Below, piece after piece: positions 7,989-48,847 of a stretch of 64,000 nt of DNA (positions within the stretch are counted from its first letter, which is position 1; every line of letters starts with the position of its first letter). The DNA lies in IMG/VR virus record IMGVR_UViG_3300043424_000514, positions 8,871 to 72,870 of that record, one strand, 5' to 3'. The notes beneath the pieces were generated by a model. It saw nothing but the letters and a program-made list of their open reading frames with translations, was not told the DNA's origin and searched no databases. The DNA is from a virus. The translations under genes were made by a program, and so were the position numbers.

Positions 7989-9023
7989 ATGGCTAATCCC
8001 AACCTCAAAGTAGTCCGCCGCCGCCTTACTGGCGCAGCCGGAGCCCCTTCCGACATGGAAGCGGGACAAATCGCAATAAATTCCGTTGACGAAAAAGTCT
8101 ATATCCACAACGGCACTTCCGCAATCCCCGTTGCGGGTAAGGGCGAGTTCGTGGACAAAGGCTCCGAGCAGAGCGTCACCGGCAAAAAGAATTTCACCTC
8201 GGCGACCGTCTCCACCGCGCCAAGTGCTACGACCGATGTCGTTCGTAAAACCGATCTCGACACCGAAGTCACTGCACTTCAAGGTGCCATCACGACTGAG
8301 GCGACGACGAGAGCCTCGGCAGACACCGCTCTTGGTCTCCGCATCGACGCCCTAGGGAGCGCGCTGAACTATGTTGGCACTGTCAACGGTGGTGCAAACT
8401 CTGGCGCGGCGACTAACCTTGCCTCGCTGACCGAGAAGGACGCGGGCGATTACTACAAAGTAGGCACGGCAGGACACTTCGTTCTCGCTCCCGCAGCTTC
8501 GTTCTTCGCCAATAGCGGAGACGGCCTCGTCTTCAACCTCACTGGTGGAATCGACAAGATCGACAATACCAACAGCACTGTTGCAGGCACGGCGAACTAC
8601 ATTTCCGTTTCTGGTAGCACCGACACCGGCTACACGGTGGACATCGACAGCGCCTTCAAGACCCGTCTCACAACTGCGGAGACCACTCTTGCAGGGCTCG
8701 GCACCATGTCCACGCAGAATGCCAACAGCGTTGCCATCACCGGCGGCACGGTTAATGGCACGGCGATCGGCGGCACGACTGCTGCGGCTGGCGCGTTCAC
8801 CACGCTCACAGCTTCCTCGACCGCGACCCTGAACACCCTGGCCAGTTCCGGCGCTACCCTCACGGGCGGCACGATCAATGGCATGGCGATCGGCGGCACG
8901 ACTGCTGCGGCTGGCGCGTTCACCACGGTTTCGGCTTCTGGCAATGCGACCTTCAATGGCAACATTGTGGGTGACGGCTCGACCGAAATCACGGACTGCA
9001 TCATTGACGCTGGAACATTCTGA
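7989..9023 (+). CDS. tail fibre protein
   Basis: N-terminal RR...P....GQIAIN..D.K.Y fibre motif, [16 protein letters not shown] and [13 protein letters not shown] repeats, C-terminal DAGTF. Confidence 0.75.
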
Positions 9024-33200: not shown

Positions 33201-36200
33201 AGCCTGTCTTTACGAGAGACAACAAGGGCAAGTTGGTCCCAAGCGCGGTGCGTCGCGGGGAGACTGTCGGCTTGCGTTTAGAGGGTCGTGAGGCTTTGCA
33301 CAAGACGATGTATCTGCCAGACGGCACGACGCTCGTGCCCACCAACGCGGGAATCTTCCGTGGTGTGGAGGGGGCTGGAGTGGATCAACGAGTCGTCTTC
33401 GACCGCTACTATGTCGCCAAGCCCAAAGGGGCCAAAGCGCCTACCGCTACGAACACAGTATCGCTCCCAGTGTTGCGCCCTGGGGAGACGCTCATCACGC
33501 TAAACGACCTCTCGGACGAGCAGAAAACAAGCACTGGGATAACCCGCGCCAAAGGGGGCAAATGGAGAACCAGCGAACTTGTTTCCGAGGACCTTTGGGA
33601 CAACCTCTACAAAGCTCCTAAAGCTGCCGTCTTCGGAACAGCGAAGACGCCGGTGGGTGGAGTGCTTGCCCCTACTCAAAAGCCAACCCGCTCGGGGACC
33701 CGCATGACCCAGACGCCCAGCGTCGCGGAGACGGAAAGTGGAGACTTGGAACTTCAGGATGTTTTCACTTTTGAAGGCGACCTCACCGACGCGGAAAGAA
33801 TCTTGACTACCGCCCTGGGGAAATTTTCCGCTACCCCGACCCGCGAGGAATTGATCTCGGCGGGGTTCACGCCGACGAATGAGAAGGCGGAGTTCGAGGT
33901 GGCGCGTGGGAAGTATGCTCTGGAGGAGGTTCAGGATGTAACCATCAAAGACCCGCTCTCAGGGTCGGGCTTGGACATCCCCGTCAAAGCAGGGGTTTTC
34001 AAAGACTCCAAGAACCCCGACGCTCCGGCGCAAGTCAAGCTGTATGCCCAGTTCGACCTGAGCAAGGTGTATGCCGCGATGGAAGAATTGGAGGCCAAGC
34101 GCAAGGCCCCCGACACAGCGCAGAAAAACGCCAATATCGTCAGGGCCGAGCAATCCCTAGCCCGAGAGGTTCAGGACTTGCAGCGCCTCACGCTGGCTCA
34201 AATGAACATGGGCCTTGATGTTCGTGTCCGCGAAATCAATGGGGTGCCGGAGGCGCAGTTTCTTTCTGACTATGGGTTTGTCGCGTCGCGGAATGCGAGA
34301 GCTTCTGGAAATAAAGGGGCGTTCGGAAACCACATCATCACCGAAGTCACCTACAACCCGAACCCTGATTTCAAAAAGGGGGGAGACACTTTCCGTCGAA
34401 AGGCGCAGAGCCCAAGACAGACGCAGCAACAAGCCGCCGCAACGCTTACCAATACGACACTGCGAGGCCGCGGGTTCGACTTCAAAAAGACGGGGCTCGG
34501 GTCGGCGAATCAAATCTTAGGGAACTTCCGCCGCCAGATGCTCGACCGAGCGCAAGAGGCAAAAGAAAAAGAAGCAGAAGCAATCGAGAGTGGCTCCGAC
34601 CTTGCCGCTCGGCACGCCGAGGCTTTGGTCAAGCTCACCGCGTTCACCCGCCCGATGTTTGAACGCTACGCGGTGCCAATTCGTAAACATATCGAAGAGG
34701 CCCCAGGCTCGACGCCAGAGTTCAAAGACCGTTGGCGTATGCAAACCGAACTCTTCTTGGCGCGTGAGTTGAACAAGACGCAACTGCGGGCAATGCCTGA
34801 CTCTGTTGCGGCAGAGATGCAAAAACAGATCGAGACTAAAAAACGCAATGCTGATAAAATAGAACCTGTCCGCGGGAAGCGCCGAGTTAAAAAGAAAGGC
34901 AAGAACTACGGGCAGTTGGTCGATGATCCTTACCAGTCCGAGCGTCAATTCAAAATCCGCCGCAGAGAGTGGCAACAAAAACTCGATAGCGAAATTGCGG
35001 AGATAGAAGAAAAATTCTTTCGGCAAATGCTCCCCAGGGCGACCCGCGGCAATACGGGGGTTTCTGAAGTAAATCGCCTCACGAAAGAGATCGAGGATAA
35101 GAAAACAGCAATCCGCCAAAGCGTAGCCGCCACGAAGATCAAAGAAAAGCCGAGCGCCGAAGAAATCAAAAAGCAAATCAGCGCCGACTCAGAGGTTAAA
35201 AAACTAACCGCTTCTTTTCAACAAGCTAAAGGGGACGCAGCAAAAAAGCGTTGGAAGACCAAGCTGGAAGCTAGAAAAGCGCAGATTGAAAACAACGCAA
35301 TCGTCGAGCGCGACCCGACCGAGGGAGAGATTGAGACCGAGACCCGCAATCGAGTTCAAAAAGACCAAGACATCTACAATTTGGAGCGGAAGATCGAAAA
35401 GCTCGGGGAGTTCACGACAGCGCAAGACGCGATGATTGACGAGTTCTTGGGCTTCATACAAGCCGAGGCAGAAAAAAGCGGGAACCAAAATCAAAAAGCC
35501 CTGACAGAGAACCTTCGCCGATTGCTCGCTCGCAAAGAAGAAGCCGCAAAGGGAGGTAGAAAAGTATTTATCAATGTCCGCAAAGAGGTTGAAAAATCAG
35601 AGTCTTTTGCAGACCGCCAACTGCAAAAACAAATTAAGGCCGAAGCTAAAAAACTAGAAGCCACGGATGAAAGGGTAAAAGAACTCAAGGAAAAGCTCAA
35701 AAACGCGAAGCCTGGAAATGTTCTGCAACTAGAAAAGAAACTGCGGCTGCGAAAAGAAGCACTTCTCGAAGAAGCGGAATACCGTCTTTCCAAACAAGGG
35801 TTATTTATAGGACAAAACGACCAAAAAGCCGCCGAATCCGAAGAGCTTCTCGACTCCGCAGCTAAAGCGATGGATTCTGCACAAATCAGCGGCAACGACC
35901 GGATGTTCGAGGGTGCGGCTCAAAATTTTGCAGACCGGCAACAAGCCAATGAGGCAGAGAAGTTCTCCGACGCTGACCGAGCGATCGTCGAAGCCTTTGG
36001 CAAGATGATGGATGAGGTGAAAACCTTGAACATCTTTGGCACCACAGGGAGGGTTAAAGGCATCTTGCGACAAGGCTTCAATGAAGCAAGCAAGTTCAAA
36101 GGAGCTATCGAGAAGCAGGAGTTCGTTGACCCACAGACGGGAAAAGCTGCCGACGCGGGGAGCGACCTCGTGCAGGGAATGATCCGCGGGCAAGAAGACC

Positions 36201-39200
36201 CGCTGGCCTTTGAGAACTACCGCGAGCCTCGCAAGAAGGATGACGCGAAGCGGCAGGAATACCTAGAAGACCTCGCCGCCCTCAAACTCAGAGAACTCGC
36301 GAGGGAGGCAAATGACAAAACCAAAGGTGATGTTGACCCCAATATCGTAGAACTTGCCCTCGTAAAGCTCTTTGGCGGTAAGTTTGAAGGAGAAGTTGAG
36401 GGCAACTACATCAATGAGACTTTCGAGCCATTGGCAAAAGAATACGCCGATGTCATGGAAGACTTTTTCGCGGGCACAACCGCAAGGAAAGAACAACAAA
36501 GAATAGCTGAGATTGAAGCTGCCCGCGGCAAAGGCGAAAGGTCCACTCTGACAAAAGAAGAGTTGGAGCCGCTCAGAAAAGAATCGAGCCGCATATCGAA
36601 AATCGCCTTTGGCGTCATAGAGAATTATCTGTTCAACCCGAATACAAAACGAACCCTGTCGGGCAAGTCTTTACCGACGACTGAAAAGGTTTCTCTCGGA
36701 ATCCCAGGTGCTCCCCTTGCCAGCGCCCCAGGGGCGAACGGCACTGATGTAGCCCAGAGTAATAAAAACGCAACCGCTCAACCTGACCGCAACCCGACAA
36801 GGGAAGGATCAAAAGCGGCGGTGCAATCATTCGTGCAAGGTTATGCAGGGCTAACCGACTCCGACATGGTCGGACTTGATGATAGAGAAATCGACGCGAT
36901 CTACCAAGCGGCGACCTCGAAGGCCGATGCCGACATGGCGGCTGGCGCAGTGGACTCTGTCGTAGCTGCCACCCCAGGGATGAACGCGCTCCTCGAAATG
37001 AGCGGCAAGGATTTGATGCGCGGGTATCTCAGGGAACTCGAAGCAGAGCAGACCCGTGGAGATGCCGAGACGATCCTTCGCGAGAACCTCCGCAGGGCGG
37101 CGACAACGAAGATGTTCAAGTCGAACACCGACTTTCTGGAGTATGTCTCCAAGATGCCCCAGGGGATCAAGCGGGCGGCTGCACTTCGAGCGAAGGAATT
37201 CCTCAAGCTCAACGAGCAGCGCGGGTTCAACTGGAACAAGATCGCTACGCAGATCGCGGCGTTCGGCAAAGACGGCAAGCAGGCCACATGGGCGGGGCTC
37301 CTAGGGACCGACATGGAAACCGGCGGGCACGCCATCTTCCTGAACCTCGATCAGATTCACGAGGGCGACATCGTGGAGACGATGCTGGAGGAGATGGACC
37401 ACGCGCTCACCCACCGGATCATCAACGCGGAAGCCTTCGGCATGAAGCTGAACTCTGTTCAGCAAAGCGCCCGTGATCGTTTGAGAACGGATTTCAAACG
37501 CGCTGTGCTGAAAGCCGGAGAAGGCATGACCGAATTGGCCGAAGGAGCCCGTGGGTTGACGCCGGAGCAGAAGGTGGCGTTCTACTCGAACGCCTTCAAA
37601 GACATGGTGGCGGAAAGCCCCGATCAATTCCGTGCCTACTACAACCTTACGAACCTCGACGAGTTCGTGGTGGGCATCAAGAAGGACGGCAGCTTTATCG
37701 ACTTGCTCAAGGAACTTGGCTTCAGTGAAAAAGCCGAGGGCGGCTTCTCGATCTCGCAGCTCCTCAAAGACATTTTCACCTCGCTGGCGGAACTCGTCAC
37801 AGGGCGCAGGCTGGATGCAAACTCCGAGCTTGCCCGTGCGTTCTCCGACGCTTGGACCCTCTCCACAGGGCGCGATGCGAAGCAATGGACGGTGCCCCCG
37901 ACCCAGCTATCCATGGCCCTAGGGGTCGAGGCGGCAAGCACCAGCAAAGCGACCGGCAGCAATGAAACCGTGCGGATGCGTAAGGACGGCGGCACCGCCG
38001 TTTACAACGCCTACCTGCAACAGAACGAAGACGGGTCGTGGTCGGTCTTTGGAGAATTCGGAGACCCCACTAGGAAGCTCCAGCGTGCCGAGAAAAGCAA
38101 AGGCAAGCTCGATTACGAACAAGCCAAGGCGGTTTTCGACAAGACGGTTGAAGCCAAGTCCAAGAAATACTCGGTGATTCCTGAAGGACCAGAAGGACCT
38201 CAAGGACCAACGGGACCGAACGAAGGTCCTCAAGGCCCCCAAGGGCCACAAGGTCCACAAGGTCCCGCCGTGACTCCGCGGGCGCAGAGAACCCCAGGGG
38301 AATATGGTCGCAGCTTCCTGCCGCAATCCGCCCCAGGGCGGCGGTCGAATGTGACCAGGTTCAACGAACTCACCGCCGATCTGCAAGGGCGCAATCTTAC
38401 TCAAACCGACCTCGATGCTTGGAAGAACGCTAACCCTGAGAAGTATGCAGAGCTTGAAAAAATGCGGGAGGATGCGATTAAGTCCTCGGCAAGCAATAAC
38501 GGGCAAAAGGTATTCGGCCCGCTGTGGCACATTTCCAGTGAGACAGGACTTTCCGAAAACAGGTTTGACCCGAATAAAATAGGGAGCCAAACAGATAGCG
38601 GGTATTTAGCCAGAGGGTTTTATTTTGCCGGAAGTGAAGATGAGGCAAGAAACTCTGTCGGCCTCCAAACATCGAGGTCGGGAAAAGCATACCGAGTATT
38701 TGTAGGGTTCAAAAATCCTTTAGAAGTAACCCTACAGTCAAATTCGGTTGGAAACTGGCAATACAACGATGCTAATAAATCAGTTATAGAACAGCTTGCA
38801 AAAATCGTAACGCCTCAAAAATGGAATGAATTCTTAACCAAGTATAATTATAGCGCAGAAGAACTCAAAGAGCTTGGGTTAAGGCCCCCCTCCGAAATAA
38901 AAAATAGAGATTTAAGTTTCTATAATTTTTCGCTCAACGCTTACAACGAGTTGTTCAACTTTTTAGGGATAGATGGGATTGTTACTAAACTTAAAAATGG
39001 GGCTCCATTTGAAGTTGTAGGACTATCCACAGTAAAAAACCCAACCTTCAACCCTAACCAAATCAAGTCCGCCGAGCCGCTTAACCTTGAAAACGGACGG
39101 CTCATTCCGCCGACCGAGTGGGCGCAGCCGGAGAATCCAAACATCCTATACTCCGCCCCAGGGCGGCGGTCGAATGTGACCAGGATGCTCCTAGGGAAAA

Positions 39201-42187
39201 AAGAGGGGACGACTTACACCGGCAAGAAGGTGGAGACCGGTGGCTGGTTCGCCTCCGACGCCTTGGCGACGGATGGAGTGACCGCGATGTTCGATCGCAA
39301 GACGAACCGCGAGTCCTTCGGCAAGCAGCAGGCCGAATTTTATGACAAGGCCCTGGGCAGGGCGCTGAAGAAATACGAGGGCCAGTTCAACCCCAAAGAT
39401 GTCAACGACGCCCTGGGGAATATCGAAAACCCGCTCACCGAGGCGCAGGCCAGGGAGATCGACGAACTCGTGGCGACCAACCAAGAGGCGGATGCCGCCG
39501 TGCTGAAGAACGATTACATGGAGGCTAACCGCGCCGACTTCCGCAGGCGGCAGGCCGAGGCCCGCAAGCGTCTGCCCGAGGAGGTCGTGAAGATCATCGA
39601 GGAGATGCGCGACACGGTCGATCCGCTCAGTAGCTACGCCGACGAGAAGATGGGCTTCTCGACCGCCGCCAACCAAGGAATCTACCTGAACCGCGCTTAC
39701 CTGATTTTCGGGGACGAGAAGACAAGAGAGCTTCACCAAAAACAAATCCGCGAGAACCCTGTGGTGATGGAGAACCTAAAGAACTACCTCTCCCGACAAC
39801 TCGCGGAGCAGGACGCCGAGGCTTTGATCCGCCGAGCCACCCGCGAAGGGCGAATCCTCCCTAGGGAAGAAGCCTTGGTCCAAGCCACCGCCAATTTGTC
39901 GCCGACAGATTTGGGCGCGGCGATCGAGCGCGTGCTCAATGCGGGGGATAAAGGAGTCGGCTCCTTGTTTGTCTCGGGGCGCATCCCTGGGCAAAAGAAC
40001 CTGAAAATCTTTGATGCCCGCGGCAACATCGCCAAGGAAATCCAAGCGGCCTGGGGCGTGGTCGAAGACCCTGGCACGAACTACGCGAACACCGTCATCA
40101 AGCTCGCGAACCTGGTCGCCAACGACAAGTTCTTGCAAGAACTCAAGGCGGCGGGGCTGGAGTCGGGCACGCTCTACGACCCTAGGGACCCGAAGAACCT
40201 GAACGAGGAGGACGGGCAACGACTCGCTGACGCCCGCTCGGCGGCTCTGGAGGCCGATCCGACACTGGCGGCGCGGTCGCGCTTCAAGCCAGAGTTGCTC
40301 GATCGGGCAATGATCGCCCAAGACCCTGTGGTGGCGAGCATCCTCGAACAGGCTGAAAGCAAAGTCCCTTCAAAATATGTAAAGCTATCCAGCGAGACGA
40401 ACAAATCGTTCGCTCCCGTCTCGGGTATGTATGCGGAGCCGCTCTTGTTCGAGTGGTTGACCACGAAGTTCCCGCCGAGGGGCGAGGAGAGTTGGTGGAT
40501 GAAAGCCCTTACGCAGGCAACGCTCGTCCCTATGGCGATGAAGACCGTAGGCAGCGTGACAGGGCAATTCCGAAACTACTACTCGGGCTATATGTCGCTG
40601 CTTTCTAATAGCAACTTGAGGTTTTGGGACCCTGAGTGGCGGGAGGATTTCAAAGCCGCGCACCGCATGACCTTCGGAGAAATCTATCGGGATGTGCGGG
40701 GAATCTCTACCGATGCCACAGCTCGCAAGGCGATGATGAAAGCCCGCGAAAGGCTTTCGGAGTTGGGAGTGACCGGCCAATCCGTGACGATGAACTTCAT
40801 GCAGGACTTGGCGCGGCTGAACTCTGGCAAGGAGAACGGCATCGTCAAAGGAATCGACGGGCTGGTTCAGAAATTCATCCAGACCTACGGAGCATCGGAC
40901 GACAATTTCAAAATCATCCACTACTTCAGCGAGCTTGGCAAATACCGCAGGGCGTTCCCTGATATGCCGCAGGCACAGCTTGAGGAAAAAGCCGCCGCGA
41001 TCGCCCGCGGGATTCATCAAACTTACGGAGACACTTACTCGGCGGTGAAGTCGTTGAAGAAAGTTCCGTTCATCGCGCCGTTCATCAGCTTCACCTCGGA
41101 GGTGATTCGCAATACGATTTATTCAGGGCGCTTGGCGTGGAACGAAGTCAAAGAAGGCCGTGCCACAGGGAATCGGGAACTCGAACGAATCGGGCTCCAA
41201 AGATTCGCCGGAATGAGCATTGCGGGCTTTGGCACCTTTGCATTGACGAGCATCAGCGCATCTCTTGTAGGGATCAGCGGCGAGGAGGAGCGGGAGTTCC
41301 GAAAGCTGCTGCCGGAGTGGCAGCGCAACAGCCAACTTCTTTTCACAGGGAAAGAAAACGGGAAGATTAGATTCGCTGATTTCAGTTTTAGTGACCCGCT
41401 ATCGTATCTGAAAACCCCTGCGATCGCTTTTAGCAGAGAAATCTGGAGCGGCGACGAACGCTCGTTCAACGAGAAAGTCGGTAAGGGAATTCTAAACGCC
41501 ATGCAAACCCTCGCGTCTCCGTTCGTCTCGGAGCAGTTGTTCTCGGGTTCTTTGATGCAGCTTTACTCGAACAAGGACGGATCAGGCAGGGAGATCGTGA
41601 ACTGGCAAGACGACCCCGCCGCGATTGCAGGGGCGGTAGGAGGGCACCTAATCCAGCCATTCCTGCCAGGAACATTCGACTCCCTAGGGCGCATTGGCAA
41701 AGCCTTTACCGGCTATGTCAGCCCGAGCGGTCGCTCCTATGACAAGGGGAACGAAATTATGAGCTTCTTCGGAGCGCGTATCTCCGAGGTGGATGTGCGC
41801 CAATCCCTAGGGTTCAAGACCAAGGCGTTCATGCAGAACTACCGCGAGGCGGCAGAACTGTTCACAGGGCCGTTCTTGTCCCGCGGCACGCAGGATAGCG
41901 AGAGCATCGTGGAAGGATACGAAAGCGCCAACAGCGCGGTTCAGCGGTTGTTCGGAGAACTGCGGGGAATCTACCTCGGGGCGGTTCGACTCGGCGTTCC
42001 TCAACGGGAAGTCCTCTCGATCCTCAAGGCAAACGGACTTTCAGAAGAAAATCTCGCGATGCTTCGCAGCGGCAAGTTCAAGCCCTACCAAGCCAGCAAG
42101 CAGGCAATCACAAAGAACAGGGAGGCGGGGATGCAAACCCGAATCTCAGACTACAACAAAGCGTATGCGGCGGCTCAAAGACCCTAA
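30221..42187 (+). CDS. giant polyvalent internal virion protein (zincin-like, WGR, ADP-ribosyltransferase, LPD38-like C-terminus)
   Basis: 3988-aa ORF; LEEMDHALTH...NLDEFV; WGR-like YNAYLQ..DGSWSVFGEFG..LQ...AKAVFDK.VEAK.KKY; ART-like WH...FD...G.GFYF...KNP...GIDGI...NPNQIKSA; LPEWQRN..L...DFSFSDP. Confidence 0.8.
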   Translation: MIIPYDQVEGYENYTPTLNEEEDKENLVPISSVPMKMREDLSLGEEFGRGFDRGLLQTKGLGLGLVGALGEAAGLDDVEEYGYTGAQEAMQAASAPELAGEVESIFDVGSPGDFMSYAAGLMGSQVPNLAISAVTGGVGGMVGKRAVSAAITEALEAKTAQLVGEGVAKEVAKRQAQVALSREMGVNMAEKLAAEKAAQIAATKTGIGVGTAVSGVGMEVGSIYSETRDLGLAVKYGVPAGLVEGIADRYFGGKIVDAIEGTSGTKGLKAAGKEFVKGIGVEGGEEGVQTALELQALEESGVEPGFELFSKEGAKRVTEGVAAGAVMGGGMATGVQGLKLGLTPLTQRALQDVETGLPPGTETPGTEQQDTTDEEKFYNFSPDAVTIDDGDDDPITARRFTIGTEKGWAIDNPTEEMQRRLVPLGNTGKVALVDGGKGYGDALKHILNNGGRVRNIDPSILDNEIADDDGEYVGLSSFTQDNKLAAGTGQQQGKVQGTDLEIDAEQRAFEDQLISKYGQLNNVLNATELLESTGAMPQGSFTGSEREALGGGLNQDERNAILAAVPSRELTKSKAQVERLIRETEEAAAKEGTTPELERRLNFLADVQGRIADFENLKTMQQTLGRKPLEGGAAGELSAGVSKTDPVEEKLAEWSRIVEERGKVDTEISSLQKLTAPSGGGSIFDALDAYEMMLSDSQKVSQEIAALKKAKADKNQIQAKMQELRNIEESARGLISESGNQDLFANEVRKQVVVEERNNSAAYKAWDALVQEADALQAERDTLVTEEDIKNFDESSKGKKLETIAQKIDKAYEQVVPTARLAEFYKNAAKVATAKRDEQRQVDQASQEQRLAAENNLKSATEKSRGLNTDVVYKTPDGNTVVGTLVPDPETGRALDQNGNLVIAPKSFEGSDKSDLVDTRTQYGDRFIRVPRENVLNIVPDKTVGVKTQAASQAKALGVENADQNSLAQNATAIAAKLNEQSEAREKELENSLEPVFTRDNKGKLVPSAVRRGETVGLRLEGREALHKTMYLPDGTTLVPTNAGIFRGVEGAGVDQRVVFDRYYVAKPKGAKAPTATNTVSLPVLRPGETLITLNDLSDEQKTSTGITRAKGGKWRTSELVSEDLWDNLYKAPKAAVFGTAKTPVGGVLAPTQKPTRSGTRMTQTPSVAETESGDLELQDVFTFEGDLTDAERILTTALGKFSATPTREELISAGFTPTNEKAEFEVARGKYALEEVQDVTIKDPLSGSGLDIPVKAGVFKDSKNPDAPAQVKLYAQFDLSKVYAAMEELEAKRKAPDTAQKNANIVRAEQSLAREVQDLQRLTLAQMNMGLDVRVREINGVPEAQFLSDYGFVASRNARASGNKGAFGNHIITEVTYNPNPDFKKGGDTFRRKAQSPRQTQQQAAATLTNTTLRGRGFDFKKTGLGSANQILGNFRRQMLDRAQEAKEKEAEAIESGSDLAARHAEALVKLTAFTRPMFERYAVPIRKHIEEAPGSTPEFKDRWRMQTELFLARELNKTQLRAMPDSVAAEMQKQIETKKRNADKIEPVRGKRRVKKKGKNYGQLVDDPYQSERQFKIRRREWQQKLDSEIAEIEEKFFRQMLPRATRGNTGVSEVNRLTKEIEDKKTAIRQSVAATKIKEKPSAEEIKKQISADSEVKKLTASFQQAKGDAAKKRWKTKLEARKAQIENNAIVERDPTEGEIETETRNRVQKDQDIYNLERKIEKLGEFTTAQDAMIDEFLGFIQAEAEKSGNQNQKALTENLRRLLARKEEAAKGGRKVFINVRKEVEKSESFADRQLQKQIKAEAKKLEATDERVKELKEKLKNAKPGNVLQLEKKLRLRKEALLEEAEYRLSKQGLFIGQNDQKAAESEELLDSAAKAMDSAQISGNDRMFEGAAQNFADRQQANEAEKFSDADRAIVEAFGKMMDEVKTLNIFGTTGRVKGILRQGFNEASKFKGAIEKQEFVDPQTGKAADAGSDLVQGMIRGQEDPLAFENYREPRKKDDAKRQEYLEDLAALKLRELAREANDKTKGDVDPNIVELALVKLFGGKFEGEVEGNYINETFEPLAKEYADVMEDFFAGTTARKEQQRIAEIEAARGKGERSTLTKEELEPLRKESSRISKIAFGVIENYLFNPNTKRTLSGKSLPTTEKVSLGIPGAPLASAPGANGTDVAQSNKNATAQPDRNPTREGSKAAVQSFVQGYAGLTDSDMVGLDDREIDAIYQAATSKADADMAAGAVDSVVAATPGMNALLEMSGKDLMRGYLRELEAEQTRGDAETILRENLRRAATTKMFKSNTDFLEYVSKMPQGIKRAAALRAKEFLKLNEQRGFNWNKIATQIAAFGKDGKQATWAGLLGTDMETGGHAIFLNLDQIHEGDIVETMLEEMDHALTHRIINAEAFGMKLNSVQQSARDRLRTDFKRAVLKAGEGMTELAEGARGLTPEQKVAFYSNAFKDMVAESPDQFRAYYNLTNLDEFVVGIKKDGSFIDLLKELGFSEKAEGGFSISQLLKDIFTSLAELVTGRRLDANSELARAFSDAWTLSTGRDAKQWTVPPTQLSMALGVEAASTSKATGSNETVRMRKDGGTAVYNAYLQQNEDGSWSVFGEFGDPTRKLQRAEKSKGKLDYEQAKAVFDKTVEAKSKKYSVIPEGPEGPQGPTGPNEGPQGPQGPQGPQGPAVTPRAQRTPGEYGRSFLPQSAPGRRSNVTRFNELTADLQGRNLTQTDLDAWKNANPEKYAELEKMREDAIKSSASNNGQKVFGPLWHISSETGLSENRFDPNKIGSQTDSGYLARGFYFAGSEDEARNSVGLQTSRSGKAYRVFVGFKNPLEVTLQSNSVGNWQYNDANKSVIEQLAKIVTPQKWNEFLTKYNYSAEELKELGLRPPSEIKNRDLSFYNFSLNAYNELFNFLGIDGIVTKLKNGAPFEVVGLSTVKNPTFNPNQIKSAEPLNLENGRLIPPTEWAQPENPNILYSAPGRRSNVTRMLLGKKEGTTYTGKKVETGGWFASDALATDGVTAMFDRKTNRESFGKQQAEFYDKALGRALKKYEGQFNPKDVNDALGNIENPLTEAQAREIDELVATNQEADAAVLKNDYMEANRADFRRRQAEARKRLPEEVVKIIEEMRDTVDPLSSYADEKMGFSTAANQGIYLNRAYLIFGDEKTRELHQKQIRENPVVMENLKNYLSRQLAEQDAEALIRRATREGRILPREEALVQATANLSPTDLGAAIERVLNAGDKGVGSLFVSGRIPGQKNLKIFDARGNIAKEIQAAWGVVEDPGTNYANTVIKLANLVANDKFLQELKAAGLESGTLYDPRDPKNLNEEDGQRLADARSAALEADPTLAARSRFKPELLDRAMIAQDPVVASILEQAESKVPSKYVKLSSETNKSFAPVSGMYAEPLLFEWLTTKFPPRGEESWWMKALTQATLVPMAMKTVGSVTGQFRNYYSGYMSLLSNSNLRFWDPEWREDFKAAHRMTFGEIYRDVRGISTDATARKAMMKARERLSELGVTGQSVTMNFMQDLARLNSGKENGIVKGIDGLVQKFIQTYGASDDNFKIIHYFSELGKYRRAFPDMPQAQLEEKAAAIARGIHQTYGDTYSAVKSLKKVPFIAPFISFTSEVIRNTIYSGRLAWNEVKEGRATGNRELERIGLQRFAGMSIAGFGTFALTSISASLVGISGEEEREFRKLLPEWQRNSQLLFTGKENGKIRFADFSFSDPLSYLKTPAIAFSREIWSGDERSFNEKVGKGILNAMQTLASPFVSEQLFSGSLMQLYSNKDGSGREIVNWQDDPAAIAGAVGGHLIQPFLPGTFDSLGRIGKAFTGYVSPSGRSYDKGNEIMSFFGARISEVDVRQSLGFKTKAFMQNYREAAELFTGPFLSRGTQDSESIVEGYESANSAVQRLFGELRGIYLGAVRLGVPQREVLSILKANGLSEENLAMLRSGKFKPYQASKQAITKNREAGMQTRISDYNKAYAAAQRP
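38327..39184 (+). repeat. exact 33-bp direct repeats (38327-38359, 39152-39184) flanking the ART domain
   Basis: TCCGCCCCAGGGCGGCGGTCGAATGTGACCAGG twice, 825 nt apart, in frame (SAPGRRSNVTR). Confidence 0.95.
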
Positions 42188-42389
42188 CCTATGGCCCCCT
42201 GGGGGCTGGCAATTTGAAGAACTTTGCACCGGCTGTAAGTTCCGCGGCAACTCGCTGGCCGACCTAGCCGAGAAGGTGCGCCTCCACAGGGAATCCAACG
42301 CCCTAGGGCGGGAGGACCTGGCGCTGGAGGACATCCAAGAACAGATCATCCTGCGAGCGCCGGAAGAATTCGACGGCTGGGAGGAGTAG
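42165..42389 (+). CDS. small hypothetical protein
   Basis: 74-aa ORF (PPGGWQF...) overlapping end of the giant gene. Confidence 0.55.
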   Translation: MRRLKDPNLWPPGGWQFEELCTGCKFRGNSLADLAEKVRLHRESNALGREDLALEDIQEQIILRAPEEFDGWEE

Positions 42390-42432
42390 TTCTTAATTGA
42401 ACGATCAGGGGGTTCAGGTGTCTAATACCCCC

Positions 42433-42894
42433 ATGAAAAAACTTGCTTTGATTCTTGGGCTCTTGGCTGCACCTGCTCTCCATGCGGACGATGACGCGGT
42501 GGCGACGGCGGTGAACGGAAACACCTTCTTCTCCAGCGGAGAGTCGGCAACGACTGTGGGAAAGAATACTTTTTTCTCGGACGGGGAGAGCGCCACGACA
42601 GTCGGGAAGAACACTTTTTATTCGGATGGCGAGACAGCCACGGTAGTCGGGAAGAATACCTTTTATTCGGACGGGGTGACTGCGACAACCGTGGGAAAGA
42701 ATACTTTTTATTCGGACGGCACGGTGGCGACTCAAGTGGGCAAGAACACCTTCGTCGATAGCGACGATGAGGAGGGGGCCGAGCGGGCGCTCAAGGCGGT
42801 GGCGATCCCGAGCGCGATCGAGTCCAATGAGGATTCATACAAAGGATACGAGGGGTTCAAGGGATACGAGGGTTATTCCTACGACGAAGAGTAA
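42433..42894 (+). CDS. secreted protein with 15-aa tandem repeats
   Basis: signal peptide MKKLALILGLLAAPALHA; about six ATTVGKNTF(F/Y)SDGxx repeats. Confidence 0.75.
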   Translation: MKKLALILGLLAAPALHADDDAVATAVNGNTFFSSGESATTVGKNTFFSDGESATTVGKNTFYSDGETATVVGKNTFYSDGVTATTVGKNTFYSDGTVATQVGKNTFVDSDDEEGAERALKAVAIPSAIESNEDSYKGYEGFKGYEGYSYDEE

Positions 42895-42898
42895 AAGA

Positions 42899-43043
42899 CG
42901 GCAGGGACGAGTTCGCGACCTCTTTTCAGGTGTGGGCTTTCGGGAGTCTAGGGTGCTCATGCACCGCCCATCCCGCCATGTTCCTTCACGCCGCAAGGAC
43001 GGAGAGGGATTACGCTGGCCGTAAATTAAACACCTGCCTGCCG
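42899..43043 (+). ncRNA. candidate structured RNA at the convergence of the two arms
   Basis: closing stems CGGCAGG/CCTGCCG and CAGGTGT/ACACCTG plus at least three internal hairpins; family not recognised. Confidence 0.35.
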
Positions 43044-43150
43044 AAAAATATAGGGGGTGCCGCCCTTCCGTGGTTAGAGGTTCTGCGGGCGGCTTGCAGT
43101 ATAGAAAGCGGGGTAACATGAAAGACACAAAACCCCCTCCCTCAAGACAC

Positions 43151-43681
43151 TCACGGCTTGTCTGTTTCTTCAAACACTGCGTCAATTTCACTGAGCGAGC
43201 GTCGTTTGTAAAGTTTGGCTTCCGAGTTCAAAAAATCAATATCTGACAGAACTGCGATGTTGACCGCGTTTGCGTTGGTCTGCTTCTCATCGAGGCCCGT
43301 GGCTCGACGCCCCATGTCCGCAGCCGTCTTCACTTTCTCAACCTTGAGAAGAAGGTCTTCCTCGGTCATTAGCTCAGTGAACTCCAAAATTCGATTGGCC
43401 GCGGTGTATTCCCGTTCGCGAATCTGATCGGCGCGTTCTTTCCACATCGCCTCATTCGCCTCGACGGCGTTCTGTTTAAGCTGTTTCTCGACCTTCTTGA
43501 TAACCCGAGGCGACAGTTCTTTGCCCAGCCAGTTCTGCCGGTAAGCGCGGGTTTTAATAGTGCCCTGCGGAACCTTGAACTTCTTGGAAAGCTCTTTGAA
43601 AGTCGTTCCGGCAATAAACATTCCCTTGATTGTCTTCCAATCAATCGCGTCCCTGCCCGTCAATGGGTCTTTCTTGGGCAT
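43151..43681 (-). CDS. terminase small subunit-like HTH protein
   Basis: DW..IK.MFIAG.TFKELSKKFKV..GTIKTRAYRQNW is the typical TerS N-terminal HTH. Confidence 0.65.
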   Translation of the reverse strand: MPKKDPLTGRDAIDWKTIKGMFIAGTTFKELSKKFKVPQGTIKTRAYRQNWLGKELSPRVIKKVEKQLKQNAVEANEAMWKERADQIREREYTAANRILEFTELMTEEDLLLKVEKVKTAADMGRRATGLDEKQTNANAVNIAVLSDIDFLNSEAKLYKRRSLSEIDAVFEETDKP

Positions 43682-43682
43682 A

Positions 43683-43928
43683 TTAAGGAATTATGATAGA
43701 CCTTTTCTCCTCGGGCTCGGCCTTTAACTCCTCGCGTTGCTTGGATATAAAAGCCTCCATCGTCGTCTCAACGATGGCTTGGCATTCGGGGTTGCTCTCG
43801 ATGGCGTTGAGCAGGAAAGCGTGTTGCACGAAGAGGCGGCGCAGGAAGTCGCGGTCTTCGTTGTCGTTGCCCTTGGGGTCAACGGCGTTGAGGTGGTTGG
43901 CGACGGCTTCGAGGAGATAGCTTTTCAT
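43683..43928 (-). CDS. hypothetical protein
   Basis: coupled ORF in minus-strand operon. Confidence 0.6.
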   Translation of the reverse strand: MKSYLLEAVANHLNAVDPKGNDNEDRDFLRRLFVQHAFLLNAIESNPECQAIVETTMEAFISKQREELKAEPEEKRSIIIP

Positions 43929-44107
43929 TTGATGGTCTTGCCCACGCTGGGCAGAGCTTTGACTTTATTGATAATCAGGTTGCGGACTTCGCGGTCCAGT
44001 TGCTCCAAGAACTCCTTGGAGACTCGTTCAAAGGGGTGGGCGGGGCGATGGGTCTTGGCGGCTTCGAGTGTGAAGTCGCGGCAGTTTTTTTGATTGATGT
44101 ATTTCAC
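43925..44107 (-). CDS. candidate histone-fold protein
   Basis: RVS.EFLE.LD.EV..LI...V......GKTIK resembles L1-alpha2-L2 of prokaryotic histones. Confidence 0.5.
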   Translation of the reverse strand: MKYINQKNCRDFTLEAAKTHRPAHPFERVSKEFLEQLDREVRNLIINKVKALPSVGKTIK

Positions 44108-44367
44108 CAGAGATTTTTACACGCCCAATAACCTGCTTTGGTTTTGTCTTTCTTGTCCTTGCAGTTGTGTCGGGCGTGGAAGTTTTTTCTACGCTTTTCG
44201 TTGTGGTGCTGCGTGAAGTCGGACATCGAGCTATCGCCGAAGTGAACCACTTTGACATTGCCCTTGTCCGACTTCACGAACACGGATTTCTTTTTACCTG
44301 CGGGAGTTACCCCCGCGATCTTTCGAGGGGAGTTGAGCGTGACTTTCTTGCCTTTCCATGTAGCCAT
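44104..44367 (-). CDS. basic phage protein of unknown function
   Basis: KVVHFGD...RRKNFHARHNC...AGYWAC pattern that I recall from other aquatic viruses. Confidence 0.7.
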   Translation of the reverse strand: MATWKGKKVTLNSPRKIAGVTPAGKKKSVFVKSDKGNVKVVHFGDSSMSDFTQHHNEKRRKNFHARHNCKDKKDKTKAGYWACKNLW

Positions 44368-44404
44368 GGGAGCAAGGTTGCACGGTTAATAATCTGATGC
44401 AACA

Positions 44405-44599
44405 TCAGAACGAGGCGCGGCGCAAAGGTTGTTGAACCGGCACCACGACGCCCCGATCCGTTACCTGATACACTACCTGGCTGGAGGGGCTAACGCTCTT
44501 GGGCGTTGATGACTTGCGGCAACCGCCACCAGCGGTGCAAAAGATTATGATTGGTGCGGACAAAACAATAAGTGCGGTGAATAGTCTTTCAGTAAACAT
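44405..44599 (-). CDS. small membrane protein
   Basis: hydrophobic N-terminus; shared leader upstream. Confidence 0.55.
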   Translation of the reverse strand: MFTERLFTALIVLSAPIIIFCTAGGGCRKSSTPKSVSPSSQVVYQVTDRGVVVPVQQPLRRASF

Positions 44600-44635
44600 A
44601 AGGTTAGTTTCTTTCTATGGTTGGTTGTTGGGTTA

Positions 44636-45118
44636 TTATCTCTGCTCCTCAAGCCACTCGGCGATGTTGTCGTAGTAGGCCCAATGCAGCAGGGAAATGG
44701 CTTGATCCTCCTCCAAGGCGGAGGGGAGGGGAGCGCATCGGCGCTCGCTCTGGGAGAGCAAAGCGTGGGTGAGAGCAGGGATCATTTCCCTCCACTGGAA
44801 AGGAAAGAGCCGGTGCATCACCGTCGCAACGAATCGGTCGGCCAGAACGAACGCATCAGCAAAATGCCTTGCGTCAGCGCCCCAGTGGGAACGATCCGCG
44901 CTCCAGTCAATCGTGGGGTAATCCTCCTCGAACGCCTCGTCCCCAAAGATCAGGCGGAAGGCGGCTTCCCACTCTCGGGTGTGGGCGACCCATGCACCAA
45001 GTTCAACCAGCAGGCCCTCGATCTTGGGGTCCCCTGGAGCTTGGAATCTTGGCTGCACCCTGGGGGTGTTGCGGTTGATGTGGTAGTAGGCTTCGGTTGG
45101 TAGGCAGGTTTGTGTCAT
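44636..45118 (-). CDS. hypothetical early protein
   Basis: start placed after shared leader. Confidence 0.6.
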   Translation of the reverse strand: MTQTCLPTEAYYHINRNTPRVQPRFQAPGDPKIEGLLVELGAWVAHTREWEAAFRLIFGDEAFEEDYPTIDWSADRSHWGADARHFADAFVLADRFVATVMHRLFPFQWREMIPALTHALLSQSERRCAPLPSALEEDQAISLLHWAYYDNIAEWLEEQR

Positions 45119-45155
45119 GTGGTTCCTTTCGGTTGTGTGTTTTGTTGTTGGGTTA

Positions 45156-45422
45156 TTACGATTCGGCATGAGTCATAACCGTTGTGCAGAGGCCGTCCTC
45201 GGCGCAGTTTTCGGTGATGATCCAGATTGCTCCGAGGGGAGTATCGAAACAAGAAACGGCGCGGTCGGGATCGACGGGGCCTTCCACGCATCCCCTGTCA
45301 CCCCGCCAGTGGCGGTCGATGTAGAGGTGGGCGAGCAGGCCGTCTTCGACGAGTTGGTGGGCCGCTTCGGTGAAGCGCATCATCCCCAAATCGAATTGTG
45401 GTTCTCCGAGTATGTCAGTCAT
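45156..45422 (-). CDS. hypothetical protein
   Basis: RHWRGD.G.V...IWIITE motif; coupled to upstream ORF. Confidence 0.55.
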   Translation of the reverse strand: MTDILGEPQFDLGMMRFTEAAHQLVEDGLLAHLYIDRHWRGDRGCVEGPVDPDRAVSCFDTPLGAIWIITENCAEDGLCTTVMTHAES

Positions 45423-45733
45423 GGCAGATGGTCCTTGTGGATCAGCAGAGCGGTTCCGAAGAACTCATGCTCCCCCGCCAGCACGACCGCCAGCAGGTTC
45501 TCCTCGCCGATCTTGTTGGCGTCCGCCACTACGACATAGTCCTCGACCCGATACTGCGGGCCGCTTCCGTCCTCCTCCAAAGAAAAGAACGGGCCGCTCC
45601 CGTCGTCCGTCACAGGAGCCGTGATCCGCACGGGCCCGACATAGGAGCAAAGCTCCTCCTCGGTGAACCTCCCGTTTTCGGGGGAGATGTCCTCGATTGT
45701 CGCATCGGTGTATAGTATTTTTGATATGGTCAT
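45419..45733 (-). CDS. hypothetical protein
   Basis: P.NG.FT.EEL...VG pattern; gene packing. Confidence 0.55.
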   Translation of the reverse strand: MTISKILYTDATIEDISPENGRFTEEELCSYVGPVRITAPVTDDGSGPFFSLEEDGSGPQYRVEDYVVVADANKIGEENLLAVVLAGEHEFFGTALLIHKDHLP

Positions 45734-45777
45734 GGTTGAGTTTAGACATGGGTTGTGTCGTTTCGTTCAATAAAAAA

Positions 45778-47391
45778 TTATGCTTTTACTGAACGCAACA
45801 ACCTCACAAGCGCATCGGCCAGCCCCCACAGGCTTTCGCGGCTGATGTAATAATCGAAGTGCTCCTTCAAGTTCTTCGTCCGGTCGATGGAAGAACAGCA
45901 CAGGCCGAGGGTTTGCAGCCCCCGCTCGCGCAGCGCAGCGCGGTCGATCGGGTTATCGGTGATCTCGCCGTCGGTGTAGATGATGGCGAGCCTGTCCTTG
46001 GACACCTCGTCGAAGCAGTTCTTCGAGGTCTTGCGGTGGGCGGGGCTGGGGCTCAAGGCCAGACCGAACCCCTCGGCTGAACTCCAACCGCGGGCCAACT
46101 GCGCTTGCGCGTAGCTCTTGATGGGCAACTCCGTCTTGTAGTTCACGCCGCCCTCGGAGCAGAAGTAGGCCGTGCATTTGATCTTCTTCTTGCCTGCGAG
46201 GATCGACAGCGCCATGAGCAAGACGCGGCCTGCACGATCGGTCGGGAGCGAGGTCGTCTTCTCCCGATCAACGAAGCAGTTGTAATACGCCATCGAGCCC
46301 GAGCAGTCGATGAGCAAAGACAAATGCGGGACGCCGTTGTTGCCGATGACCTTGCCGATGTAGGGCAGGTCGTAGCATTTGCGGAGGATCGCCCGCAGGT
46401 TGAGCTTGGAGGTCGGTCGGCTGGTCGCCCCCTTGGTGGTGCCCACCCCCTTGAAGGCGGTGGCAAGCATTCGGGCGAGGCGGACGGCGAGGTAGTGCTC
46501 CCGCTTCTGGTCGTCTCCACTGACGCCTGACAGCGACTCTTCCTCGGAGAGGGAGGACAGGGTTCCGTGGGCCTTCATCTCCTCCCCTTTGCTGGTGCCT
46601 GTCGTCTCGCCTTCCTCGTCGCCTGGCTTCTTGGGGACATGGAGCACGGCTTCACCGCAAGCAGTCATAGCGTCCTTGAGGTCGCCGGTGCCGAGCCCGC
46701 CCGCTTTCTCGATCGAGTCGTCGCTGGTGCGAGGGAACTCTTTGAGCCAGTCGATTAGCACGGGGATCAAATTCTCGGTGCTAGAAGTCCTGCGAATGCG
46801 GTTGAAGTATTTCAAAACCGTATCGAAGAACGGTAGCACTCGGAAGGTCGCCTGAAACTTTCGGGACAACTTGCGGGAGAATCCCGAGCAGTCGTTCTTC
46901 ATCCAGTAGAGCAGCGCCGAGGGTGTGACTTTCGAGATGTCCTCGGGATACTTCTCCCAAGTCATCCACTTGAAGGCCCGCCTGCGGAGGCGGGACCAGA
47001 TGGTCTCGATGCGGATGTCCTCGAAGAGGTTCATCAAACGCCAAGGGATGTTGTGTTTCTTGAGCGCATCGTTGAGTTCCTTGAGGTTCTTGGTGGTGAA
47101 GCGGGAGTGCGCCGCCTCGTGCTCATAGACCTCGGTGAACAGCTTGGGCACCGACCGGCGAACGCCGCTCCCTAGGGAGGGGGTGGCGATCGTATCGTAG
47201 GCCAGAGGCGAGATCATAATCTCATGCTTCTTGGTGTCGTGGTTGTAGGTCCAGCACCCCGTCTTGCAGGGGTGGGACGGCGGGAGAACTCCGAGCGAGT
47301 AAGCCTCGGTCAGGGTTCCCTTGGAGCGGAGCTTGATGTGAGCCGCTTCGACGAGCGAGCGGATGTGTGTGGTCAGTTTGATCTTGGACAT
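45778..47391 (-). CDS. metallopeptidase-like + vWA domain protein (CobT/NorD-like partner of MoxR ATPase)
   Basis: HEAAH...NLFEDIRIE; MIDAS LLIDCSGSM; IYTDG. Confidence 0.85.
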   Translation of the reverse strand: MSKIKLTTHIRSLVEAAHIKLRSKGTLTEAYSLGVLPPSHPCKTGCWTYNHDTKKHEIMISPLAYDTIATPSLGSGVRRSVPKLFTEVYEHEAAHSRFTTKNLKELNDALKKHNIPWRLMNLFEDIRIETIWSRLRRRAFKWMTWEKYPEDISKVTPSALLYWMKNDCSGFSRKLSRKFQATFRVLPFFDTVLKYFNRIRRTSSTENLIPVLIDWLKEFPRTSDDSIEKAGGLGTGDLKDAMTACGEAVLHVPKKPGDEEGETTGTSKGEEMKAHGTLSSLSEEESLSGVSGDDQKREHYLAVRLARMLATAFKGVGTTKGATSRPTSKLNLRAILRKCYDLPYIGKVIGNNGVPHLSLLIDCSGSMAYYNCFVDREKTTSLPTDRAGRVLLMALSILAGKKKIKCTAYFCSEGGVNYKTELPIKSYAQAQLARGWSSAEGFGLALSPSPAHRKTSKNCFDEVSKDRLAIIYTDGEITDNPIDRAALRERGLQTLGLCCSSIDRTKNLKEHFDYYISRESLWGLADALVRLLRSVKA

Positions 47392-47425: not shown

Positions 47426-48847
47426 TTACTTGGCGGACGGGCCGAACGCTTTGGCGAGGGCTTCGTTCACCTTCTTGACTTGCTCGGTTTCGGGCAGGCC
47501 CTCGATCGTCTCGGCGACCCAGATGTTCATACCCAGCAGGCGCAGGGATGTCGGGACATCGGCCTCGTCGATCGCATACAGCAATGCTTCGGAGAGGATG
47601 CGAGTGGTGGGGCGCACCTCGATGAAGCTATCGGCGGCAAGCACGCCGCACTCTTTCCAGAAGGCGATGATCTTATCGACCACGGCGGGGGTGAACCCTT
47701 TCGCCTTGGCCGCAGCCGACAGGACAGCACGCAGCTTGGCCTCCTCGACCTCGACATGGACGATGACGAAGCGTTCTTTGCCAGCAGGGCAGTCGGCATT
47801 GACATCGAACTTCGCGCCGACATTGGTGGTGGCGGCGACGGCGAGGTTCTCCTTGGGGCACAGGATTTCCTCGGTGCTCTCGACGCCGGTGACGGGATCG
47901 ACAATCGGGCGACCCGTGTTGAGTGCGTAGTAGAGCTTGCCGTCGATCTCACGGGCGCTGAACGGGGTCAGCAACGACTGGCGGGCGGCACCTTGGGCGC
48001 GGTAGATTTCGTCAAGCAGAACGAATACCTTCTTGCCCGCGGCGGCGAGTCGCCATGCACGGGTGAGCGGGCCGTCCACCCAATCGGTCTTGGCTGTGCC
48101 GAAGCCGAACATATCCGACGGCATCGTCTCAGGCTGGAAGCCGAACTCGATGTAGGCATCGAACTTCTTGCCCCATGCACGAGCGCCGTAGGTCTTGCCA
48201 CTGCCCTGCCCGCCCTTGATGAGCACCGGCTTGAGGGCGGCACCAGGCTGGCAGAATCTCTCGAAGCACAGGGTTGTCGTGTCTTCGCTTGTCGGCGCAG
48301 TTGTGATCCCTAGGACAGGGGCAATCACGGCGGTAACGGCGGAGTTGCCCCGCTCGATGGCGTCTTTGACGAGGTCGGTCAACTCGTCGAGCTTGTTGTT
48401 GCGCTTTGCCAGCGAGTCGGACATGACGCGGTGCCCTTCCTTCAAAGCCTCGATGTCGGGGAGCAGGGTCGGAGGTAGCTCCACTGCGGCAGGCGAGTGC
48501 GCCTTCATCTCCACGCGGACCGAGAGTTCGTCGATTGCTTCAGCGAAGGTGGTGCTGGCCGACTCGATGCGGGAGGTCAACTCGTCAAGCTGCGGTTGCA
48601 CTGCGGCCTTGAGGGCGGCGGCAAGCAAGGCGGTCTCTCCCCCTGTGGGCGAGGTAGGGGCTGACGCGCCGAAGGTGCGGGCCTTGGCCTCGTCGCCTGT
48701 GATCTCCCCCTTGAGGTAGGCTTTGAGGATTCCGCTATTGGCGGTGCTCACCCAAGTTCCGGTGGCGGTGGCTTTCACAGCCTTGCGGGCTTCGGTGTAG
48801 CCGAGGGCGTCGATTTGTGCGGTGGTGAGTGTCGTTAGCTTTGTCAT
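47426..48847 (-). CDS. MoxR/CbbQ-type AAA+ ATPase
   Basis: Walker A GGQGSGKT, WVDGPLTRA, Walker B LLDEI, AATTN sensor, KERF. Confidence 0.88.
   Translation of the reverse strand: MTKLTTLTTAQIDALGYTEARKAVKATATGTWVSTANSGILKAYLKGEITGDEAKARTFGASAPTSPTGGETALLAAALKAAVQPQLDELTSRIESASTTFAEAIDELSVRVEMKAHSPAAVELPPTLLPDIEALKEGHRVMSDSLAKRNNKLDELTDLVKDAIERGNSAVTAVIAPVLGITTAPTSEDTTTLCFERFCQPGAALKPVLIKGGQGSGKTYGARAWGKKFDAYIEFGFQPETMPSDMFGFGTAKTDWVDGPLTRAWRLAAAGKKVFVLLDEIYRAQGAARQSLLTPFSAREIDGKLYYALNTGRPIVDPVTGVESTEEILCPKENLAVAATTNVGAKFDVNADCPAGKERFVIVHVEVEEAKLRAVLSAAAKAKGFTPAVVDKIIAFWKECGVLAADSFIEVRPTTRILSEALLYAIDEADVPTSLRLLGMNIWVAETIEGLPETEQVKKVNEALAKAFGPSAK

Follow-up and report, generated by a model that had tools for sequence, protein, structure and literature searches.

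A 60-residue phage protein from a large unannotated family as a probable remote relative of α3-truncated histones

The 64,000-nt stretch analysed here (positions 8,871 to 72,870 of the virus record IMGVR_UViG_3300043424_000514, called the window below) contains on its minus strand a short open reading frame (ORF) of 60 amino acids (aa), located at 43925..44107 and terminated by a TGA codon. The source record, that of an uncultured freshwater phage, is 72,870 bp long and was judged 100% complete. An earlier inspection of the bare sequence, referred to as the original prediction, had proposed that this ORF encodes a minimal histone-fold protein of the phage. Its account of the position, length, sequence and basic character of the product agreed with our data, and the start codon was corrected from ATG to GTG, which overlaps the stop of an upstream 87-aa ORF as GTGA. 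The predicted protein of ~7 kDa has an isoelectric point (pI) of 9.92 and contains 13 Lys and Arg residues versus 7 Asp and Glu. The ORF had 24 close homologues with lengths of 60–91 aa. It shares 90% amino-acid and 76.5% nucleotide identity with its relative at the locus L002, and the codon differences between the two comprise 31 synonymous and 5 non-synonymous changes. A profile built from 22 of the close homologues matched the representatives of 814 clusters, drawn at 50% identity, with E ≤ 1e-3; in 105 cases the match was at E ≤ 1e-10. Based on the ratio of synonymous to non-synonymous changes and the number of cluster representatives, we concluded that the 60-aa ORF is a real gene under purifying selection.

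The proteins of this family are short, mostly 57–66 aa among the members listed, and strongly basic, with a median pI of 10.6 and a median net charge of +7; pI exceeded 9 in 99.5% of the 183 single-domain members. Helices and loops were read from the conservation patterns, not from structure prediction, using column statistics of 171 non-redundant members. The window protein is divided by this layout as follows:

44048..44101, minus strand: predicted helix α1, residues 3–20, low in Pro and Gly and placed also by the hhalign register; it contains R10.
44018..44047, minus strand: loop L1, residues 21–30 (RPAHPFERVS), delimited by column statistics; the gaps of the hhalign alignments are located here.
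43952..44017, minus strand: predicted amphipathic helix α2, residues 31–52 (22 residues), free of Pro and Gly and with hydrophobic periodicity.
43928..43951, minus strand: loop L2 and C-terminus, residues 53–60 (PSVGKTIK), delimited by column conservation; no α3 follows.

Pro and Gly are practically missing from profile columns 4–22 and 27–53 and are confined to the two predicted loops, with peaks at column 23 (Pro 68%, Pro and Gly together 74%), column 54 (Pro 96%) and column 57 (Gly 99%). The best-conserved columns of the N-terminal half were L15 (99%), R/K11 (99%), R22 and F27 (87%). The RVS and KT motifs, which the original prediction had singled out, proved to be among the most conserved columns of the whole family (n = 171): the RVS triplet occupies columns 29–31 (R 97%, V 95%, S 84%), while the L2 motif PSxGKT occupies columns 54–59 (P 96%, S 94%, G 99%, K 68%, T 99%). 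Between them, the hydrophobic columns 34, 35, 38, 42, 45, 46 and 50 form an unbroken amphipathic face on α2. The chain of the window protein stops two residues past Thr58, and the abrupt end after the Thr of L2, noted earlier for this single ORF, holds family-wide, as the chain ended 0–1 residue past GKT[ILV] in 221 of the 260 members having the C-terminal motif.

The relationship of the family to proteins of known structure was examined by searches of the PDB. With the single sequence as query, phmmer returned one weak match, the chain 9f2c_A, at an E-value of 0.56. The same chain was found at E 0.015 with the 22-sequence profile and at E 3.2e-5 (27.3 bits, query 5–57 aligned with chain 5–50) with a profile of 89 members, thus the match gained strength as the profile was broadened. 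It was the sole significant match of the 89-member profile, nothing else appearing below E 4. The chain 9f2c_A belongs to HTkC of Thermococcus kodakarensis (PDB 9F2C), the solved example of the α3-truncated histones, of the face-to-face (FtF) type, described by Schwab et al. (2024; PMC11390915).

For profile-to-profile comparison, the FtF histone of a Haloferax genome was located and its relatives, annotated as "DUF1931 family protein" or "histone H3/H4", were collected; archaeal genomes were picked via a 16S primer scan, and diverse α3 histones were gathered from two archaeal phyla (108 and 82 genomes, respectively, out of 121 in each). The halobacterial FtF alignment found HTkC, 9QT0 and Bd0055 in the PDB and, weakly, the HMf, HmvA and H2B entries, therefore it can be regarded as a bona fide histone profile. 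When the phage family was aligned by hhalign with 36 halobacterial FtF histones, the result was 92.1% (E 6.3e-7, 46 columns; 91.1% in a separate run). It was 85.8% (P 5.4e-6, 51 columns) with 60 α3 histones of DPANN and Asgard archaea and 95.0% (P 3.9e-8, 53 columns) with all 162 α3 histones. The register was identical in all three sets: α1 was placed on α1, RVS on (N/R)V(S/A), α2 on α2, and G-KT on GRKT without its Arg. Reversed alignments used as controls gave 2.5–6.9%, and column-shuffled alignments never reached the real score, neither in a series of 40 (best 3.8%) nor in a series of 100 (best 21.5%, with a score of 19.6 vs the real 30.9). As a calibration, α3 histones were aligned with five nucleosomal archaeal histones in the same set-up, which gave 95.7% and 60.5%; therefore, the phage family appears about as distant from the α3 histones as these are from the classical ones. 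Reciprocal searches of hidden Markov models (HMMs) against sequences yielded best scores of 28.7 and 20.0 bits, compared with 10.3 and 6.8 bits on reversed sequences. The α2 helix was the best-aligned stretch with HTkC and the FtF histones, and the α1 column that aligns with K11 of the FtF histones is Lys or Arg in 99% of the 171 members (R10 in the window protein). The Val of L1 and the Thr of L2 lay 29 residues apart in the phage family (252 of 253 members), compared with 30 in the α3 histones (160 of 162) and 34 in all five nucleosomal histones, which bears out the histone-like loop spacing that the original prediction had pointed to. This spacing agrees with the α2 of the α3-truncated kind, which is 4–5 residues shorter than the nucleosomal one. 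With the HTkC match and the hhalign results of 86–95% beside clean controls, the proposed histone kinship is borne out for the α3-truncated kind.

Some of the reading frames in the DPANN genomes G286, G235, G242, G319 and G326 contained two α3-histone matches within a single frame of 134–144 aa; such frames would be tandem doublets of α3 histones. Natural head-to-tail doublets also occur in the phage family, in 6 of 263 members (P0050, P0185, P0134, P0220, P0088 and P0044), and in five of these six the match of the first copy ends before the PSxGKT loop. The phage doublets give a hint of a dimer. Two other members, P0085 and P0091, are fused to C-terminal domains following a hydrophobic segment, and one of these tails resembles an ORF lying two genes downstream of the family gene in another locus (L006, 1427..2132), which we take to be RlpA/DPBB-like. 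It is possible that P0085 and P0091 are read-through fusions with a cell-wall enzyme gene.

Several observations weigh against histone kinship. The window protein alone is not diagnostic, as it gave the above E-value of 0.56 in the PDB and 11 bits against the α3-histone HMM. Pfam histone families were matched by none of 22 family members at E ≤ 10; specifically, PF00808 (CBFD_NFYB_HMF) and PF09123 (DUF1931) were unmatched by both the window protein (E ≤ 1) and the 22 members (E ≤ 10), and none of 120 family proteins listed in a second search carried a precomputed Pfam domain. None of five archaeal genomes gave a match to the family HMM at E ≤ 1, though one of them carries an FtF histone gene, and of the four distinct α3-histone sequences in the PDB set only one was matched by this HMM. 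Against the five nucleosomal archaeal histones, hhalign gave just 2.5%. There are structural discrepancies as well: the α1/L1 segment is ~10 residues longer than in the α3 histones, the truncated α3 of 3–4 residues that follows L2 in these is missing, and the RxTxxxxD motif is left without its Arg, in whose place the alignments have a gap or Gly/Lys, and without its Asp, which is impossible because the chain has already ended; the Thr (99%) and a Lys remain. Five of the 263 members (P0033, P0036, P0140, P0167 and P0168) have a duplication or insertion in the middle of α2, which would not be easily tolerated by a strict handshake geometry. A tblastn search for cultured relatives, with three family members against 50,697 GenBank phage records, did not find the family, and the fold assignment itself is drawn from sequence profiles only.

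Having set these points against the alignments, we consider it moderately probable that the 60-aa protein represents a large unannotated phage family of remote homologues of the α3-truncated histones (the FtF, DUF1931-annotated and Bd0055-type proteins), for which a DNA-bending dimer is the model we propose. The predicted layout is that of a histone fold without the whole third helix, that is, α1, a long L1 ending in RVS, a 22-residue α2, and an L2 of PSxGKT[IL]K, at which the chain stops. Since the family resembles the short α3 histones, the 60-aa protein probably binds and bends DNA. In the pairing of histone folds, as described in two reports (PMC11390915; 10.1101/2025.05.08.652872), the α2 helices cross antiparallel and L1 meets L2 of the partner. 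Two chains of the phage protein would likewise pair through antiparallel α2 helices, so that RVS of either chain would come to lie next to GKT of its partner; these two loops, together with the conserved Arg/Lys of α1, would be the phosphate-contacting sites, and the dimer would bind DNA non-specifically as well as bend it. The α1 residue K11 of the FtF histone D4GZE0, with which this Arg/Lys column aligns, is reported as a DNA-binding residue in PMC11390915. N45 and R41 of D4GZE0, by which the FtF histones form tetramers, align with columns that are not conserved in the phage family (column 56: Lys/Arg 52%, hydrophobic 47%; column 52: Lys/Arg 27%), consequently the protein most likely acts as a Bd0055-like dimer and not as a wrapping tetramer. 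Bd0055 itself is reported in the same two sources to act as a DNA-bending dimer that lacks the FtF tetramer residues.

Among known proteins, HTkC shares with the phage family the α1–L1–α2–L2 order, the (R/N)V(S/A) of L1, a short α2, the KT of L2, a basic residue at the K11 position and a size of ~60 aa. Unlike HTkC, the phage protein has neither the α3 turn nor the Arg and Asp of RxTxxxxD, its L1/α1 is extended as described above, its L2 reads PSxGKT, and it is encoded by a phage and not by an archaeon. The bacterial dimer histones Bd0055/HBb (8FVX, 8CMP) are likewise short folds of the α3 type, but they keep a one-turn α3 and are cellular proteins; at E ≤ 10, the HMM of the phage family did not hit their chains in the PDB. 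The HLp-type 9QT0 is a tetrameric FtF histone, which serves here for comparison. From the nucleosomal HMf-type histones the phage family differs in the absence of a full-length α2 or α3 and in its loop spacing (29 vs 34).

Histone-fold proteins of Caudoviricetes have already been published, namely VTTH, VHHH, VFFH and BBVH (Liu et al., hLife 2025, PMC13681535 / 10.1101/2024.12.06.627149) and the "phage histones" of Schwab et al. (2024; PMC11390915). Similar to our family, these proteins are phage-encoded folds of the α3 kind, proposed to bend or bridge DNA and known only from metagenomes and predictions. In contrast, they are described as keeping α3 and/or adding a C-terminal helix, a loop or an N-terminal tail: in the "phage histones" and VTTH a tetramerising helix follows the α3 fold, where the 60-aa protein ends at L2 instead, and the conserved K8, K9, K47 and R48 of VHHHFP do not fit the R10...G56-K57-T58 pattern of this family. 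The survey of Liu et al. comprises 289 non-redundant proteins, compared with the 814 cluster representatives found here. Searches of the literature on phage, bacterial, truncated and DUF1931 histones gave no description of our family, and some overlap with the supplementary sequence lists of Liu et al. and Schwab et al. is possible. By these descriptions, the family would be a phage relative of the α3-type histones that has no α3, set apart from the published viral types.

Some phages encode small, abundant "histone-like" proteins by which the genome is coated or bent and its replication and transcription are organised; examples are p6 of phi29, which has a fold of its own, and TF1 of SPO1, which is a homologue of HU. 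Their likeness to the 60-aa protein is a functional analogy only; the folds are unrelated and no sequence relation was seen.

Outside the window, the family was searched for in several further collections. The ORF matched nothing in PHROGs or, at E ≤ 1, in Pfam, and the 120 proteins listed in the second search are named "hypothetical protein" at the source, except for one stray GINS label. PF00808 found no match at E ≤ 10 in the whole phage genome. In a search for the host, the family profile returned nothing from three bacterial genomes, nor at E ≤ 1e-5 from 301 genomes of one phylum, that of G451. Among sequencing runs, the 20 matches listed came from 12 studies and were for the most part metagenomes of freshwater and lakes; the best four may represent the source sample, and no RNA runs were among them. 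A feature search of a protein-model atlas yielded clusters in which a minority of the members carry PF00808; their scores were just 0.82–0.85 and the clusters were treated as a lead only.

The gene is part of a string of short ORFs at the end of a leftward-reading block, in which its neighbours are the following:

44104..44367, minus strand: upstream ORF of 87 aa, basic (pI 10.3), matching PF19058 (DUF5754, E 8.3e-12) and phrog_7595 (E 7.8e-13), both of unknown function.
43683..43928, minus strand: downstream ORF of 81 aa, acidic (pI 4.9), whose ATG overlaps the stop codon of the 60-aa gene as ATGA.
43151..43681, minus strand: terS-like or helix–turn–helix (HTH) DNA-binding ORF of 176 aa, matching phrog_1206 "terminase small subunit" (E 1.3e-6) with residues 11–77 only.

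The 87-aa ORF is the very basic small protein that had been noticed beside the gene. The ATGA coupling, also proposed earlier, does exist at the 3′-end of the gene, but the coupled partner is the 81-aa acidic ORF and not the terS-like one. The acidic ORF matched no family at significant E in Pfam or PHROGs. The 176-aa ORF begins 1 nt past the stop of the acidic ORF and is the last gene of the leftward block; it had weaker matches to regulator and DNA-binding PHROGs and no relative in the PDB. A promoter and terminator scan of the 42800..46000 region of the window revealed nothing bearing on the operon above shuffle expectation.

The gene context was compared in 17 loci (the window, L002, L003 and L005–L018; L004 is equal to L003 and was omitted). 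The terS-like, DUF5754 and acidic ORFs adjoin the gene only in the window and in its close relative L002, so the terS link suggested by the original prediction did not hold beyond one pair of close relatives, and the terS call itself is based on an N-terminal HTH. The association of the 60-aa gene with terS is therefore local. At the other loci, an ATP-dependent-ligase-like gene was found in the neighbourhood in 5 of the 17 (PF01068, E 1.3e-4), along with genes for a DNA-polymerase processivity factor (clamp), a DNA methyltransferase, HNH endonucleases, an Ogg-HhH protein, GP88 and a phosphoesterase. In 8 of the 17 loci, the stop codon lies in a 4-base overlap with the start of the following gene, and no conserved partner gene was seen across the 17. 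The idea of an acidic partner was rejected, as the 81-aa ORF is not kept beside the gene and the pI of the downstream neighbours ranges from 4.1 to 12.0. Because of this context, a role on intracellular DNA (in replication, modification, transcription or genome organisation) is favoured over a terminase-specific one: the protein probably acts in the former way, and a partnership dedicated to the small terminase is improbable.

Three other explanations have to be weighed against that of a DNA-bending relative of the α3 histones. The protein might be an unrelated small basic protein of two helices, forming a hairpin or a coiled-coil dimer, whose likeness to the α3 histones is convergent. This would agree with the lack of Pfam histone matches, with a fold read from sequence alone, and with the absent α3, the longer α1/L1, the insertions in mid-α2 in 5 of 263 members and the single match among four solved α3 sequences. 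Convergence would at the same time have to account for three α3-histone sets that aligned in one register over 46–53 columns including both loops, at 86–95% where controls did not exceed 21.5%, and for a fixed loop-to-loop spacing only one residue off that of the α3 histones, and we find it unlikely. It is also conceivable that the fold does derive from histones while the protein serves as a sequence-specific regulator or as a protein–protein adaptor of the DNA-metabolism machinery of the phage. Many eukaryotic histone-fold proteins are adaptors, replication, repair and modification genes surround the family members in various loci, and both the tetramer residues and the RxTxxxxD clamp are missing. 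However, the uniformly very basic character of the family (median pI 10.6), the coincidence of its best-conserved columns with the DNA-contacting loops and the α1 Lys of the α3 histones, and the absence of a conserved partner gene from the 17 loci make such a function rather improbable.

The poorest prospects among the alternatives are those of a packaging accessory, that is, a DNA-bending factor aiding the assembly of the small terminase at the packaging site, as the host IHF helps the terminase of lambda. In the window and in L002 the gene indeed lies two genes upstream of the terS-like ORF within a translationally coupled string, but this arrangement is confined to a single lineage (2 of 17 loci), the terS call depends on the N-terminal HTH, the string is situated at the far end of a leftward block with AAA+ and vWA-like genes, and a scan of 20 large window proteins revealed no large terminase. 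Thus, we regard this role as very unlikely.

If the kinship with the α3-truncated histones is true, its implications would go beyond a single phage. Prokaryotic and viral histones form a young field, in which the α3-truncated histones were defined in 2024 and few of them have structures or DNA-binding data. A family without α3 would show how small a histone fold can be and would offer a simple 7-kDa system for learning which of its parts dimerisation and DNA bending require; the set of virus-encoded chromatin proteins would grow well past the published counts, and a protein that is common in phages of freshwater and other environments, so far as a "hypothetical protein", would obtain an annotation. 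A stronger version, which we put forward tentatively and think somewhat doubtful, is that these proteins are the smallest natural histone fold, still able to form DNA-binding handshake dimers, and that they serve as the phage's own chromatin proteins in the course of infection. Under this version, tailed phages may have no histone-like family with more members, and it would have escaped Pfam, PHROGs and the published surveys of viral histones.

The CCCYRGGG sites, whose link to the 60-aa ORF had been called speculative from the outset, are strongly enriched in the window (61 observed vs 5.28 ± 2.2 expected, a number reached by none of 100 shuffles; for example at 2782, 5214, 41805 and 52210), but none lies within 43925..44107 or beside it, the nearest being at 42301 and 45058, so the proposed link was not supported. 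Most of the sites read CCCTAGGG, CCCCAGGG or CCCTGGGG, and CCCCGGGG occurred once.

A Pfam and PHROGs scan of 20 large window proteins recognised no large terminase, portal or major capsid protein, which suggests that the phage is very divergent; outside the window, the record encodes a family A DNA polymerase, a helicase with DUF2800 and an integrase-like gene. The AAA+ and vWA-like genes of the leftward block that ends in the string of the 60-aa gene lie at the following positions:

47426..48847, minus strand: AAA+ ATPase, CobS/MoxR-like in appearance (PF07728, E 3e-7; phrog_249 "porphyrin biosynthesis").
45778..47391, minus strand: protein of 537 aa with a DCSGSM stretch, adjoining the AAA+ gene.

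We take the DCSGSM stretch to be a vWA MIDAS-like motif, and the two genes would be a CobS/CobT-like pair. The rightward block is closed by a single ORF of 3,988 aa (30221..42187, plus strand), which has a collagen-like GPQGPQ run. A further plus-strand ORF of 165 aa at 42397..42894 has an N-terminal hydrophobic segment and ~6 tandem repeats of GKNTF(F/Y)SDGE(S/T)ATTV.

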